Source: a virus. Taken from it: a DNA stretch of 64,000 nt. The DNA lies in the IMG/VR virus record IMGVR_UViG_3300025096_002738, positions 1-64,000 of that record. The stretch is one strand, 5' to 3'. Numbering within the stretch: the stretch's first letter is position 1; each line of letters starts with the position of its first letter. The notes beneath the pieces were generated by a model that did not search any database, was not told the DNA's origin, and was given only the letters and a program-made list of their open reading frames with translations. A program made the position numbers and the translations under genes. Positions 14,183-21,594 of the stretch are shown here, piece after piece.

Positions 14183-14731
14183 ATGAGACTGCTGTTTGAA
14201 AATTGGCAGAAATATTGTGATATGGATGGAGTGCTAGTAGATTTCGAGCTAGGCGCAGCAGAATACATTACAGGCGACTTAAAGGCTGGAAAGGCACCTG
14301 AGTTAGCCGAAGAGATTGGGCGCGATTACGCGACTGTTGAGGATATTAAGTCTAATAAGCCCGTAAGAAAATACATGTACAAAGAACTTTCTGATCATGT
14401 AGATTATTGGGCAAATTTGCCATGGACGAAAAACGGCAAAGCACTATGGAGCTTAATATCCCCTTATAATCCTAATATTCTCACCACTCCCATGGGTCGT
14501 GGCTCAGAAATTGGCAAGCAGGCTTGGATTGATAAAAATCTATCTCCATCGCCAAATCAAGTTTTTATGTCTAAAGACAAATACCTTTGGGCAAACAAAG
14601 ACAGTATCTTAATCGATGACTGGACTAAGAACACAATACCATGGACAGAGCACGATGGAATTGCGATTCTTCACTCAGATGATGATTATCAGAAAACTGT
14701 AAATGCGTTAAAGGAACTAAATATAATATGA
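14183..14731 (+). CDS. 5'(3')-deoxyribonucleotidase (NT5C, HAD fold) with shared leader
   Basis: CDMDGVLVDF, ILTTP, GKQAW, K...ILIDD...N...W...GIAILH; leader MRLLFENWQKY. Confidence 0.85.
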   Translation: MRLLFENWQKYCDMDGVLVDFELGAAEYITGDLKAGKAPELAEEIGRDYATVEDIKSNKPVRKYMYKELSDHVDYWANLPWTKNGKALWSLISPYNPNILTTPMGRGSEIGKQAWIDKNLSPSPNQVFMSKDKYLWANKDSILIDDWTKNTIPWTEHDGIAILHSDDDYQKTVNALKELNII

Positions 14732-15114
14732 AACTCCTACTTGAAAATTGGCGAGAGTATTTGGATGAGAACGAGGAAGTTGTCAAGAAAACCTTTCGAA
14801 TAGATGGTGGCCGGATAGTGGTCATTGAAAACAGTAAATGGGCTGGCGGTGCCCATTCGATAAGTGGTTTTTTTGTTGATGAAGACAAAAGGGGCAAAGG
14901 CTTAGGAAAGAAATTAATCCAATTAGTATTGAATAAGTATCCGGGTGAAGAAATCTCCGCACAAGTAAGCAGTTTAGCCTCCTTGAAAGCTTTTATGGAT
15001 TTAGGCTTTAAGCCTCCTGAGAAACCTGATGCATCGTTCGAAGAAGCGGAAGACATTTTTAGCCGCAACTATGGTAGTCTAAATTTGAGGATAAACAATG
15101 AAACTCCTACTTGA
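14728..15114 (+). CDS. GNAT acetyltransferase with shared leader
   Basis: FFVDEDKRGKGLGKKLI acetyl-CoA motif A, ASLKAFMDLGF; leader MKLLLENWREYLDE. Confidence 0.82.
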   Translation: MKLLLENWREYLDENEEVVKKTFRIDGGRIVVIENSKWAGGAHSISGFFVDEDKRGKGLGKKLIQLVLNKYPGEEISAQVSSLASLKAFMDLGFKPPEKPDASFEEAEDIFSRNYGSLNLRINNETPT

Positions 15115-18167: not shown

Positions 18168-18793
18168 AACTCCTACTTGAAAATTGGCGAGAGTTTGTAA
18201 ACGAAAAGAAATGGGAAGATTATGAGATCGACAAAAATACTTGGACCGAATTCTCTCCTGATGAAATAGAAGCCTCTCGTGATCCTATTGAGGTGGATCT
18301 TCCAGAGGAATTTATAGCCTTAATTAACAAGGCTTATGAAAAAATTGGAGGAAACTTTGATTTTGGGGCCCCCGAAGACGTTCCCGGTGATGCTGATATT
18401 TGGGCGGCAATCGATATTGATGATGACCCCGAGCCCGACGCTCTTAGAATCGGAAAAACAAAACCGCACGGTGTTAAGCTCTCTGCTTCGGGGCACGACG
18501 GCACTCGCCCAGGAATCAATGCTTACATACAAAAAACAGCCGATTTGTTAAATAGTCCCGGCTATTACGCAGAAATGTCTAAAGGGATTGCCCACGTTAT
18601 GTTAAAATATCATAATGTTTCTTATGTTGATGATCCTGAAAAAGTACAGAAGATTTTAGGACCATCAAAACTAATTAAATGGCTTGGACCTCACCCTGAA
18701 GGAAAATATCCTGGTATTGATGGATGGTACACCCGCACTATCTCAGGGCACGAGGATGAATTAAAGATTATGTTAGGAGAGCCAAACGCATGA
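18164..18793 (+). CDS. hypothetical protein with shared leader
   Basis: MKLLLENWREFVNE; 209 aa. Confidence 0.8.
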   Translation: MKLLLENWREFVNEKKWEDYEIDKNTWTEFSPDEIEASRDPIEVDLPEEFIALINKAYEKIGGNFDFGAPEDVPGDADIWAAIDIDDDPEPDALRIGKTKPHGVKLSASGHDGTRPGINAYIQKTADLLNSPGYYAEMSKGIAHVMLKYHNVSYVDDPEKVQKILGPSKLIKWLGPHPEGKYPGIDGWYTRTISGHEDELKIMLGEPNA

Positions 18794-21594
18794 AAGATTG
18801 GCTTCAAGATTGGAATAAATTTCTAAACGAAGAGAAACAAGTTGTTTCAACGCGAGAAGAACTAGTTGATCTATTGCGAGATAATCCTGACCAAAAAAGA
18901 AAGCTGGATATGCGCAAGGGAGAAGGACACAAGTCTTTTGGCGGTGTCTTCAATCCGCCAATACAGGTTGAGTTCGATTATGGAGAGTTTCCAGAGTTGA
19001 TCAATCCTGCCGACGGCATGGGTTGGGATATAATTCTTGCTGACAACTCTAATATAGATGACGATAATCTATTGCCAGTTGGGCACTTTGGTTACATTCA
19101 AGATAAAGATCTATGGAATAACCATGGTGTATACGATATGCCAGAAAAGGTGGGCGGAAACTCTAAGATTGTTTTGTCAAAAGATGGCAATATTAGTGGC
19201 GCCGAAAAAGATCATCTTACAAAATTCTTCGAAGATATGTGGCAGTTTGAAAAGCCGGAATGGTATACTGTTGAAGAAGAGCGTATTCTTCGAGAAGTTA
19301 CCGAAGACGAGCTACGAGTAGTTGAAGATATCTTAGATAAAATGGCTGAGGATCCAAAATGGCTGCCATTTAATGATATATTTGGCGACAAAACTCGGTT
19401 AGTCATTAACTTTCCAACTATGGATAGACATTCTGAACTTGGTAGATTTGCTGATGTGATACAGAATCAGCTTGGACTATCTGTAGACTGGAACAAAGGT
19501 ACTGTTTCCGCTGATAGACGATGGAATGACCACGTCGGTGCAACAGAACGCATCGCAAACAGGCTTGTCGGAGGGAATGCCAATGAACAAGATAGTGGAG
19601 TAATAGAAAGAAGCTTTACCATGAAAATTGGTAAGTATTTTGCTAGATTAGAAAATCTTTTAAAGAAACTTTATGATACAAAACACGCGGTGAGATCGAA
19701 CAGATTCGTGCACATGCAGTCGCTTTCTTCAAGGATGGTAATAGATGCTATAGGCGAAGATGGAAATAAGCGATATGACCAACTTTTGAATCAATTAGAA
19801 TTGTATCTAGGAGGATCTGGAGGGAAAGCTAATAAGCACTGGTCGTCTAAAGATAGAGAAGAAGGAGATCCTGTTTCGGAATTCCCGGAATTTGCCGACT
19901 ATTGGCAAAAAAATGCCGCTTATATTAAGCAAAATCTGAGTTCTCTTAACAGCGATAAGTATTCAATAATCATTACTCGACACCCAATTGATGTTCTTCG
20001 AATGAGTGATTATGAAAATATTACATCTTGTCATTCTCCTCCAAGCCAAGAAAAAGTTGGGCAAAGTTACTATAAATGCGCGGCAGCAGAAGCTCAGGGC
20101 CATGGGGCAATTGCATATGTTATAGAAACAGAAGAACTACTTTCTGAAACAAACACAGGTAATATTGAAAGCGCCGAGCAGGAAATTCAAGAAGGCGAAA
20201 TATTTTACGACGATCAGAGGCCCCAAGATACGGGAGATATAAGACCAGTTTCGCGAGTTCGGGTACGGAAGCTAATGTACTCTGAAGATGATGAGACTGG
20301 CGGCCAAGATTTTGCGTTACCTGAAAAGCGTATTTACGGCGCCGGCATTCCTGGCATAGCCGATCGGGTTCGCGAGTGGGGTAGACAAACACAAGAAGCA
20401 AAGATTGAGAATCTGCCAACAAAAGATGGCAAAATTAATCTCAACGATTTCCAGATATACGGCGGATCTTATGAAGACACTGCCGGGTGGGTGGGTCGTG
20501 AAGAGTTGATGTTGCTTCTTTTGCAAAAACCAAGCAACGATTTTACTGGCAGGATTAGCCAAAACATAGAAACTGAAGATGATTTAGATGCTGAGCTTCT
20601 TGGTGACCCAGCCGGAATGTATGAAAATGAGTGCCGGCTGATTGCAGCGGAATGGAACAATAGATATGCTAGTGTTAGTGTTGGTTACCAAGTAGAAGGT
20701 GATGGAGCCGATGGTGTTTATATTGGAGCAGAAGCTACGATACACATTAAATGGGACGCTGACGAATGGACTAGCCTTCCCAATACTTGGGACAGAATTG
20801 TAAGTTATAGCGCCGATGAGTTAAATGGCTTGTTTGGAGATCTTTTTCTAGACCGGGCCCGCTTGTATCGTTCGGGGCAGGAAATTAAATGGGAATGTTC
20901 GCTTAATCTTGAGCACCCAGATTTCGGTGGACAATCTTATATGGTAATACCATACGAGTTTAATGAGATGTGTGAGGTCGTCGATGTAAACGCTGACGAT
21001 AGACGGGATGCTTTTAAGGAATATCTTACCGAATACTTTAGACGCGAAGGATTTATACAAGGCGCCCAATATGTGCAACTTGCTATGTCGATTGAAGATG
21101 GAGGGGGTGACCACCTAGAGTGGGATGTAGAAACCGACGGTGAGTATACAAGTTCATATGTGTCGTATGCTTCTGTTAGTTTTTATTATGATCCAGAAGA
21201 ATGGAAAATAGATCCGAGAGTATTACTTCAAATATTAGATTCGCGCGATTTTAAAATATTATTAAGAAATAATATGCTAGCGGGCCCTAGAAGACAAATA
21301 TCTACTGATTATTATCTTGATATTTCAAGCGCCGGCGCCGTTGATGTCGGAGGCGAACTTAAATATACAATCCAGTTTAAGATCACACTTGATGATCCAG
21401 ACGAAAGAGTAGAGTTATTTAAAGAACTCGTCACCGGTGATATGGATGATGAAGACGAAATAACACGAGTATTTAACAAAACTCTTGCTCAAATAAAATA
21501 CGAAATGAGCCATGGCACTGCGTGGGGATCAGACCTCGACGATATTCAAGAAAGCATGCAGCGGCGATGGACAAGATTCCTGCTGGATGTATGA
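18790..21594 (+). CDS. large acidic multidomain protein; N-terminal inorganic pyrophosphatase-like domain; divergent leader
   Basis: MKDWLQDWNKFLNE; DYGEFPELINPADGMGWDI resembles the PPase YG..P....DGD..D motif; central IITRHPIDVLRMSD...SCH. Confidence 0.7.
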   Translation: MKDWLQDWNKFLNEEKQVVSTREELVDLLRDNPDQKRKLDMRKGEGHKSFGGVFNPPIQVEFDYGEFPELINPADGMGWDIILADNSNIDDDNLLPVGHFGYIQDKDLWNNHGVYDMPEKVGGNSKIVLSKDGNISGAEKDHLTKFFEDMWQFEKPEWYTVEEERILREVTEDELRVVEDILDKMAEDPKWLPFNDIFGDKTRLVINFPTMDRHSELGRFADVIQNQLGLSVDWNKGTVSADRRWNDHVGATERIANRLVGGNANEQDSGVIERSFTMKIGKYFARLENLLKKLYDTKHAVRSNRFVHMQSLSSRMVIDAIGEDGNKRYDQLLNQLELYLGGSGGKANKHWSSKDREEGDPVSEFPEFADYWQKNAAYIKQNLSSLNSDKYSIIITRHPIDVLRMSDYENITSCHSPPSQEKVGQSYYKCAAAEAQGHGAIAYVIETEELLSETNTGNIESAEQEIQEGEIFYDDQRPQDTGDIRPVSRVRVRKLMYSEDDETGGQDFALPEKRIYGAGIPGIADRVREWGRQTQEAKIENLPTKDGKINLNDFQIYGGSYEDTAGWVGREELMLLLLQKPSNDFTGRISQNIETEDDLDAELLGDPAGMYENECRLIAAEWNNRYASVSVGYQVEGDGADGVYIGAEATIHIKWDADEWTSLPNTWDRIVSYSADELNGLFGDLFLDRARLYRSGQEIKWECSLNLEHPDFGGQSYMVIPYEFNEMCEVVDVNADDRRDAFKEYLTEYFRREGFIQGAQYVQLAMSIEDGGGDHLEWDVETDGEYTSSYVSYASVSFYYDPEEWKIDPRVLLQILDSRDFKILLRNNMLAGPRRQISTDYYLDISSAGAVDVGGELKYTIQFKITLDDPDERVELFKELVTGDMDDEDEITRVFNKTLAQIKYEMSHGTAWGSDLDDIQESMQRRWTRFLLDV

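Follow-up and report, generated by a model that had tools for sequence, protein, structure and literature searches.

An N-terminal leader shared by unrelated enzymes of a marine T4-like phage: a candidate prohead-targeting tag and recombination seam

Introduction

In phage T4, the internal proteins and Alt carry an N-terminal capsid-targeting sequence (CTS) of 10–19 residues which is described as binding the scaffolding core and as being removed by the gp21 protease after a glutamate (PMC9026906; PMC5694885). The first 10 residues of IPIII are described as sufficient to package foreign proteins, and the variable internal proteins as anti-defence cargo bearing a CTS (PMC3012670; PMC9026906). 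Alt is annotated as a packaged, injected ADP-ribosyltransferase (ART). Here we analyze a stretch of viral DNA, positions 1 to 64,000 of the record IMGVR_UViG_3300025096_002738 (hereafter the window, which is the first 64 kb of an 81,161-base IMG/VR contig), in which nine of ten consecutive genes begin with the same short leader peptide in front of otherwise unrelated proteins.

Two further systems bear comparison. In the giant phages phiKZ, 201phi2-1 and SPN3US, a relative of the gp21 protease cleaves the N-terminal propeptides of ejection and inner-head proteins at A/S-x-E (PMC5694885). Shared with the present locus would be a Glu-cutting relative of gp21 and paralogous proteins with conserved N-termini, which in those phages are head proteins that are packaged and ejected. 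However, most of the propeptides in those phages exceed 100 residues, their motif is A/S-x-E, and they are described neither as a portable short tag on dozens of unrelated enzymes nor as forming tandem cassette arrays. In the hyperplastic regions of T4-type genomes, PeSL cassettes have been described whose repeats appear to shuffle non-essential genes (PMC2839356; PMC4122927). There, as here, a short repeated DNA motif stands at gene boundaries in a variable T4-type region, but the PeSLs are described as non-coding, combining a sigma-70-type early promoter with a stem-loop terminator, and as flanking early ORFans, whereas the repeat considered here consists of the first ~40 coding nucleotides of each gene and lacks promoter or terminator features. 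Cassettes with TTGACA boxes do occur in the window, but away from the array, at 1–5 kb. No published description of this leader was found in our search, outside of which lay subscription journals and supplements; the capsid-targeting papers that it did return concern T4 or SPN3US.

The explanation that we favor, with a probability of about 0.6, is that the leader is a T4-CTS-like prohead-targeting propeptide that would be cut after Glu14 by a gp21 homologue, and that its coding DNA would double as a recombination seam.

A leader shared by nine of ten consecutive genes

The list of open reading frames (ORFs) and six-frame motif scans agree that nine of the ten consecutive plus-strand genes between 14183 and 21594 carry the leader MKLL[LF]ENW[RQ]x[YF][LV]xE at the first codon, as had been reported in a sequence-only reading of this DNA. 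The leader-bearing ORFs start at 14183, 14728, 15098, 16243, 16494, 16991, 17535, 18164 and 18790. A degenerate DNA pattern of the leader gave eight matches (at most two mismatches), against 0.01 expected from 100 shuffles. The copy at 18790, MKDWLQDWNKFLNE, is diverged; it was recognized through a regular expression and by eye, and the leader hidden Markov model did not detect it. The motif scan found no further N-terminal copies in the 81,161-base contig. The genes of the array are as follows.

14183..14731, +, tagged gene 1: HAD / 5'-3' deoxyribonucleotidase-like protein (phrog_2643, 9e-19)
14728..15114, +, tagged gene 2: GNAT acetyltransferase (Pfam PF13673, 1.3e-06; PF00583, 1.1e-05)
15098..16243, +, tagged gene 3: 381 amino acids (aa), no assigned function; cassette common to the relative G032
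16243..16497, +, tagged gene 4: 84 aa, no assigned function; 80% DNA match in the tagged locus L100
16494..16994, +, tagged gene 5: DUF2441 protein (PF10386, 1e-06; phrog_5663, 2.9e-14)
16991..17194, +, tagged gene 6: 67 aa, with relatives only via the leader and an acidic stretch
17191..17538, +, untagged passenger: small protein that has an HExxH motif and a hydrophobic segment (phrog_15610 'protease', 6.1e-25)
17535..18167, +, tagged gene 7: 210 aa, possible ART-PolyVal-like enzyme (language-model likeness of 0.94 to PF18760 clusters)
18164..18793, +, tagged gene 8: 209 aa, no assigned function
18790..21594, +, tagged gene 9: 934 aa, with the variant leader MKDWLQDWNKFLNE

When the leaders are removed, the nine bodies fall into nine separate blastp clusters, and the family matches of the cargoes begin after the leader; the bodies are mutually unrelated, as the same reading had stated. 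It also described the leader as ending in hydrophobic-x-Glu except at 14183, and this ending is indeed present in eight of the nine copies. The 14183 leader is shortened to MRLLFENWQKY and lacks the ending. In three of four other marine runs, contigs contain 30 additional bases after 14211, which read in frame as Y-L-N-E-E-E-E-L-T-I (by-eye translation), that is, as the missing leader ending, and the ortholog of this gene (g1_21498) in G001, a complete collinear genome described below, has a complete leader. By these comparisons, the 14183 leader is a 30-nt in-frame deletion variant that is polymorphic at sea.

The cargo labels proposed earlier fared unevenly. The HAD and GNAT assignments, at 14183 and 14728, were recovered. 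The three ART-like domains are unconfirmed: the lead at 17535 comes from the language model, with no Pfam or PDB-profile sequence support for an ART fold, and that at 15098 is a weak language-model lead. A 'PPase-like' cargo was not supported by any analysis. For the 17535 protein, all 22 of the 22 aligned orthologues keep the leader, which is followed by a variable, indel-rich linker and then by a conserved domain; as judged from this alignment, the layout would be that of a separable tag.

The cargo of 18164 has two tandem homologues in L136 (LR756501.1, a 735-kb uncultured phage), whose different N-termini, ...YKIFEAD and ...YKVFEAD, also end in hydrophobic-x-Glu; this cargo family thus also occurs with another tag, one specific to its lineage. 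Among the tagged proteins, that of 934 aa has the most widely conserved body, and searches of Pfam, PHROG and a PDB profile gave no identity for it. It corresponds to two ORFs of G001 (12868–15962), a tagged ORF of 164 aa followed by an untagged body of 866 aa; in G032, a variant leader is fused straight to the body. The possibility that the 67-aa tagged ORF and the HExxH ORF are one split gene was rejected, because in L063, too, the HExxH homologue is untagged and directly precedes a tagged gene, and because relatives of the 67-aa ORF were found through its leader alone. The 67-aa gene may be a remnant.

Spread of the tag and diversity of the cargoes

A pattern scan of viral contigs found the leader in at least 120 contigs; the counts of copies, clusters and endings given here and below are those among the matches listed. 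These comprise 183 leader copies (at least 120 viral loci), frequently in tandem arrays of 4–6. Of the leaders, 166 are non-redundant and 160 of these stand on ORFs of at least 30 aa; the ending [LIVMF]-x-E occupies residues 12–14 in 130 of the 160. For clustering, ORFs shorter than 50 aa were left out, which kept 182 tagged proteins (173 from the loci and nine from the window), and with the leader stripped these formed at least 87 blastp clusters. A Pfam scan of 77 cluster representatives, ten clusters having been set aside for want of a complete member from outside the window, matched 18 families with one or two representatives each, most representatives having no match. The families include protein kinase (2), poly(A) polymerase/nucleotidyltransferase, zeta-toxin-like, NUDIX and RNase T, as well as HAD_SAK_1, DUF2441 and a papain-like toxin domain. 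With kinases, a nucleotidyltransferase, NUDIX, exonuclease, zeta-toxin-like and GNAT proteins and a possible ART among them, the cargoes are of the enzyme types that phages deliver. At the other extreme, leader-only ORFs of 10–16 codons (e.g., MKLLLENWRGI followed by a stop) occur in at least eight loci (L040, L043, L051, L065, L081, L101, L105 and L111) and look like emptied cassettes.

The seven complete tagged genomes carry 8, 1, 2, 5, 10, 2 and 3 copies (at most one mismatch), and the reversed pattern gave 0. In a control of 596 Gb of prokaryotic genomes, 59 pattern matches were found in 57 stretches. Only six of them are full leaders, and these sit on four small contigs that are probably mis-binned; the others are short out-of-frame stubs. 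By this control, the tag is specific to viruses. A clue to a Pelagibacteraceae host, from three single-cell genomes, was rejected, the matches being chance stubs of 9–13 codons.

A comparison of the window's contig with G001 revealed that the flanks of the array are conserved and that only three cargoes are held in common, in a changed order. Together with the number of clusters, this bears out the expectation from the first reading that cargoes would change while leader and locus are kept.

Link to the T4-type head module

The ORFs of the window's contig are collinear with those of G001, a complete genome of 203,204 bases with terminal repeats (75 ORF hits, overlapping antisense frames included), such that 1–81 kb of the contig runs from 201.6 kb of G001, across the genome ends, to 93.9 kb. 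The portal, protease and major capsid protein of G001 match T4 gp20, gp21 and gp23 at 1e-25 to 1e-28. From this collinearity it follows that the window comes from a T4-like myovirus of ~200 kb and that the head module (105–136 kb in G001) lies beyond the contig end. CheckV gives a completeness of 18%, which implies a genome of ~450 kb, as against the collinearity with a complete genome of 203 kb; probably the CheckV value is too low, and the contig represents roughly 40% of a ~200-kb genome. Near-identical array DNA is present in 24 metagenome runs of marine or seawater origin, which belong to 21 studies. The closest cultured proteases, from Flavobacterium phage immuto, Microcystis phage Mel-JY01 and cyanophages, are only 36–48% identical.

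A prohead protease and L-x-E sites in the capsid protein, which had been proposed as things to look for, are absent from the window's own contig, and the link to the protease therefore runs through the collinear relative. In the relatives, the protease and candidate sites of this kind were found. The gp21 protease family PF03420 was searched for in the window's contig and 39 of the at least 120 tagged contigs, each of them 39 kb or longer, and was present in 10 of these 40 records overall and in seven of the seven tagged records that are at least 90% complete; gp23 is present in the same seven. All seven complete tagged genomes (180–203 kb) encode a T4-type portal, a gp21 protease and gp23. 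Directly ahead of the conserved shell domain, the motif ELL[RK]E is invariant in eight of eight capsid proteins examined. According to the T4 record, the N-terminus of gp24 is MAKINELLRE-S and gp23 contains FLTE-A. These capsid-propeptide motifs would fit an L-x-E rule for the proteases of this lineage.

The leader itself also reaches the head module. In three of the seven genomes (G001, G019 and G013), a tagged or variant-tagged gene lies directly upstream of gp21; in G001, it encodes a tagged acidic protein, MKLLLEHWNRYLQE, at 122477–123025, between the portal gene and gp21 (123379–123987). In four of the seven, the gene directly downstream of gp21 has a leader-like W[RKD]-x-[YF]-[LM]-x-E near its N-terminus (with F for W in G011), the four stretches being TWRTFLNE, SWKNYLVE, LLVENFRNFMKE and IINERWDRYLKE. 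For the accessory proteins of the G001 head module, Pfam, PHROGs and a PDB profile gave no identity. A conserved small protein is encoded next to gp21, and an acidic protein of 392 aa upstream of the capsid gene.

A second common N-terminal leader, MK[IV]TK..L.QII.EE, which ends in I-x-E, was also observed. It occurs in five copies in the structural module of G001 (106.8–117.2 kb, L142) and in three copies inside the tagged array of G032 (4.3–4.9 kb, L206), and is not found in the window's contig.

DNA-level conservation and possible cassette exchange

Conservation of the leader begins exactly at the ATG, the sequences upstream being different. Five leaders of the window share an identical 24-mer that is also found in G001, G003 and G005. 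When copies in the array have the same residue at a position, they use the same codon for it in 182 of 245 pairs, compared with 91 expected from the codon usage of the contig, and Leu3 is fixed on CTC, the joint-rarest Leu codon (12%). Between contigs, the ~40-nt leader DNA is mostly 88–100% identical, compared with 64–75% for the adjacent orthologous coding DNA. Similarly, the 30 nt encoding the CTS are identical at 30 of 30 positions between T4 ipII and ipIII (T4 record).

The leader DNA starts with ATGA and contains TGA in both other frames, at nt 2–4 and nt 15–17. Among the 187 listed leaders that are preceded by 150 nt or more of sequence, the upstream ORF ends at the first TGA in 101, at the second TGA in 17 and one base before the ATG in 18, with none of these in 51, so that 136 of the 187 overlap an upstream stop codon. 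In the window, tagged gene 2 ends on the TGA at nt 15–17 of the following leader.

A whole cassette is shared with G032, which matches 15097–16286 of the window's contig at 85% identity over 1,200 nt, precisely from one leader through the 381-aa cargo to the end of the following leader. Five further blocks shared by the two genomes are 68–74% identical, and the neighbors of the cassette differ between them on both sides. In four marine runs, 576–1,529 contigs aligned to the stretch, the long ones covering the flanks and parts of the array. By a rough measure, summed depth reached ~1,000–7,000 in bins with the canonical leader, compared with roughly 10–100 in the array flanks, and loose contig ends at leaders agree poorly, so that many different sequences must adjoin the leader. 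Leader-to-leader 'joints' in the metagenomes were not counted as deletions; their sides are shorter than 30 nt, with undetermined letters in between, and they probably come from other leader copies.

Judging from the substitution pattern, selection evidently acts on the leader peptide too. Changes are conservative (R/K/N/Q at residue 9, Y/F at 11, L/I/V at 12 and E at 14), the third base of Leu3 across the listed leaders is C in 89, A in 43, T in 20 and G in 8, and the diverged leaders MKDWLQDWNKFLNE, MKYFHNSWRNFLNE and MKIILERWDSYL retain the peptide pattern while their DNA differs.

Flanks, promoter motifs and other features

The array is bordered by the following features.

13195..13998, +, left flank: trypsin-like serine protease, the N-terminus of which resembles a signal peptide (phrog_9683 'protease', 9.4e-10)
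14035..14042, +, motif CTATTTAT, 148 nt ahead of tagged gene 1; candidate late promoter specific to the lineage
21512..21919, +, right flank: nuclease (phrog_452 endonuclease, 4.3e-36)
22036..22362, +, right flank: small conserved protein (74% identity to G001 22140–22457)

The serine protease adjoins the array on the left in the window's contig, in G001 (ortholog g1_11339, 45% identity) and in G032 (ORF 38167–38913, reverse-complement coordinates).

The motif at 14035 is of the form CTATTTA[TA], of which G001 has 35 copies on the plus strand versus three on the minus strand. Twelve of the 35 plus-strand copies are intergenic, in 5.4% of the genome, and stand mostly 23–62 nt upstream of structural-module genes. 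The window contains the motif at 11403, 11995, 14035 and 59400, with a further copy beyond it at contig coordinate 66355. TTGACA boxes occur in the window at 0.8–3.5 kb, 28 kb and 33 kb, with none in the gap before the array, and in G001 TTGACA-type promoters cluster away from the CTATTTA[TA] sites. The upstream motif hints, weakly, that the array is expressed together with the structural genes. No RNA run was among the listed runs that carry the array DNA.

Elsewhere in the window, positions 1–8000 have a GC content of 54–58%, compared with 38–47% in the remainder, and encode an ATPase and a protein of an 'HNH endonuclease' family; TTGACA-type boxes stand in gaps of this part at about 0.8, 1.8 and 3.4 kb, and its collinear counterpart in G001 is the early region near the terminal repeat. 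At 28966–29379, ARAGORN predicts a phage-encoded transfer-messenger RNA (tag peptide ANNNNHFDSVRLAA) directly followed by a tRNA-Gly(GCC). Two adjoining glycosyltransferase genes (phrog_2170) occupy 37761–40300 within a larger block.

Weighing the explanations

If the leader is a prohead-targeting propeptide, it would probably form an amphipathic helix by which the tagged proteins are docked, one and all, to the core of the prohead during assembly. The gp21-family protease would cut after Glu14 of the [LIV]-x-E ending, and the mature enzyme would stay in the head and enter the host together with the DNA. At the same time, the nearly letter-identical leader DNA of ~40 nt, which ends the upstream gene through ATGA or the second, out-of-frame TGA, could act as a homology patch for the gain, loss and exchange of whole cassettes of leader and cargo. 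The sequence-only reading had proposed a portable address tag. The unrelated cargoes, the protease-motif ending, the occurrence in phages with gp21, the copies in the head module and the varying cargoes all agree with this proposal, but capsid loading alone leaves the DNA-level constraint unexplained.

A number of observations count against this explanation. Sequence similarity between the leader and MKTYQEFIAE is not significant, and the two are alike, by eye, in pattern only; the leader would be an analogue of the T4 CTS, or has diverged too far to tell. Its helical hydrophobic moment is just marginally above that of shuffles (0.001–0.11). The first gene of the window (14183) seems intact without an [LIVMF]-x-E ending, which 30 of the 160 listed leaders lack, and the body of the 934-aa protein occurs untagged in G001. 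Eight of the nine window cargoes are acidic (isoelectric points of 4.5–5.9), whereas T4 internal proteins are described as basic (PMC9026906). The 81-kb contig of the window has neither a gp21 protease nor a capsid gene, the leader was found in none of five sampled phage records, and two cargo queries returned no cultured relatives. As to timing, CTATTTAT is 148 nt from the array rather than the usual 23–62 nt, its lateness would follow solely from the position of such motifs before structural genes, and the T4 late promoter TATAAATA is not enriched in the window (two matches versus 3.0 expected). Finally, the codon freezing implies some DNA- or RNA-level constraint that a pure peptide tag does not need.

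Some of these points would suit a leader that serves as a docking or regulatory peptide for a destination other than the capsid, such as a peptide that binds a common hub of phage or host, a degron or timing signal for a protease, or an oligomerization helix, in which case [LIV]-x-E would be no gp21 site. We consider this account unlikely, though it deserves attention. Packaging is read here from sequence comparison, the cargoes are acidic, unlike the T4 internal proteins, and 30 of the 160 listed leaders do without the ending; on the other hand, the leader and its variants stand on genes that flank gp21 in the head module, and where the ending is present it matches the conserved capsid-propeptide motifs. 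The serine protease, a conserved left neighbor in the window's contig, G001 and G032, could be the partner of such a peptide, but with its signal-peptide-like N-terminus it would probably act outside the cytoplasm. The confinement of the tag to viruses, with just six full leaders, all on small contigs, among the 59 pattern matches in 596 Gb of prokaryotic DNA, also counts against this account.

It is quite improbable that the conserved element works mainly as DNA or RNA, as a recombination site and/or a module of translational coupling or initiation, with the peptide incidental. The codon freezing (182 of 245 against 91 expected), the excess of leader over flank identity (88–100% versus 64–75%) and the 24-mer common to the window's contig, G001, G003 and G005 would be expected of such an element, yet residues are replaced conservatively, Leu3 is free to vary at its third base, and in diverged copies the pattern of the peptide outlasts that of the DNA. 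Also in keeping with such an element are stops in both other frames, the overlap with an upstream stop at 136 of 187 listed junctions, the cassette shared from leader to leader, the at least eight leader-only stubs and the many metagenomic flanks; against it, leader-like motifs stand internally in head-module proteins, and conservation runs from the ATG on with no common upstream sequence. Most likely, a role of the DNA or RNA is additional to that of the peptide and not an alternative to it. That the leader is merely the N-terminus of one diverged protein family, which had been named beforehand as a case that would count against the tag, or an artefact of assembly or annotation, is very hard to believe, and no point in support was found: the bodies match a range of Pfam families, among them GNAT, HAD, DUF2441, kinases and NUDIX, and form at least 87 clusters, and the array is near-identical across the 24 marine runs from 21 studies, with long contigs in four runs.

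Comparison with T4 and implications

The prohead-targeting propeptide that we favor would resemble the T4 CTS in several respects. Both are short N-terminal tags on otherwise unrelated proteins (in T4, IPII and IPIII, with MKTYQEFIAE in the T4 record, as well as IPI and Alt), and both have an M-K start, Glu6, an aromatic residue mid-way and a hydrophobic-x-Glu end, with gp21 in T4 and a homologue of it in the complete tagged genomes. In both, the tag DNA is conserved between paralogues and the cargo set varies among relatives, and Alt is an ADP-ribosyltransferase. The differences are equally clear. The leader here has 14 residues compared with 10 and an invariant Trp8, and it occurs in up to 10 copies per complete genome (nine in the window's contig), in tightly overlapping tandem arrays. 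Its cargoes form at least 87 families and are mostly acidic enzymes of up to ~930 aa, whereas those of T4 are small basic proteins, and the system is so far a matter of genome sequence. The principle of the CTS is already established for T4, and repeat-mediated shuffling is known from the PeSLs. The present case departs from these systems in its tag, in scale, in the overlap of genes within tandem arrays, in carrying enzymes and in having a codon-frozen seam.

A broader picture, which we offer tentatively and regard as possible rather than probable, is that marine T4-like phages share an ocean-wide pool of hundreds of injectable effectors by means of a dual element, which as a peptide would address proteins to the capsid and as DNA would make each tagged gene an exchangeable cassette, in the manner of an integron for virion-delivered proteins without a dedicated integrase.

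If the leader is indeed a prohead-targeting tag, a simple sequence rule would give access to the injected-protein arsenal of an abundant group of uncultured ocean phages, and the cargoes would be factors of host takeover or anti-defence in the first minute of infection that are otherwise unrecognizable. Such a tag would offer a ready means of packaging proteins when marine T4-like phages are engineered. The coupling of an address tag to a recombination seam would explain the turnover of this arsenal, and the principle of the T4 CTS, known from three or four coliphage proteins, would be far more widely used.

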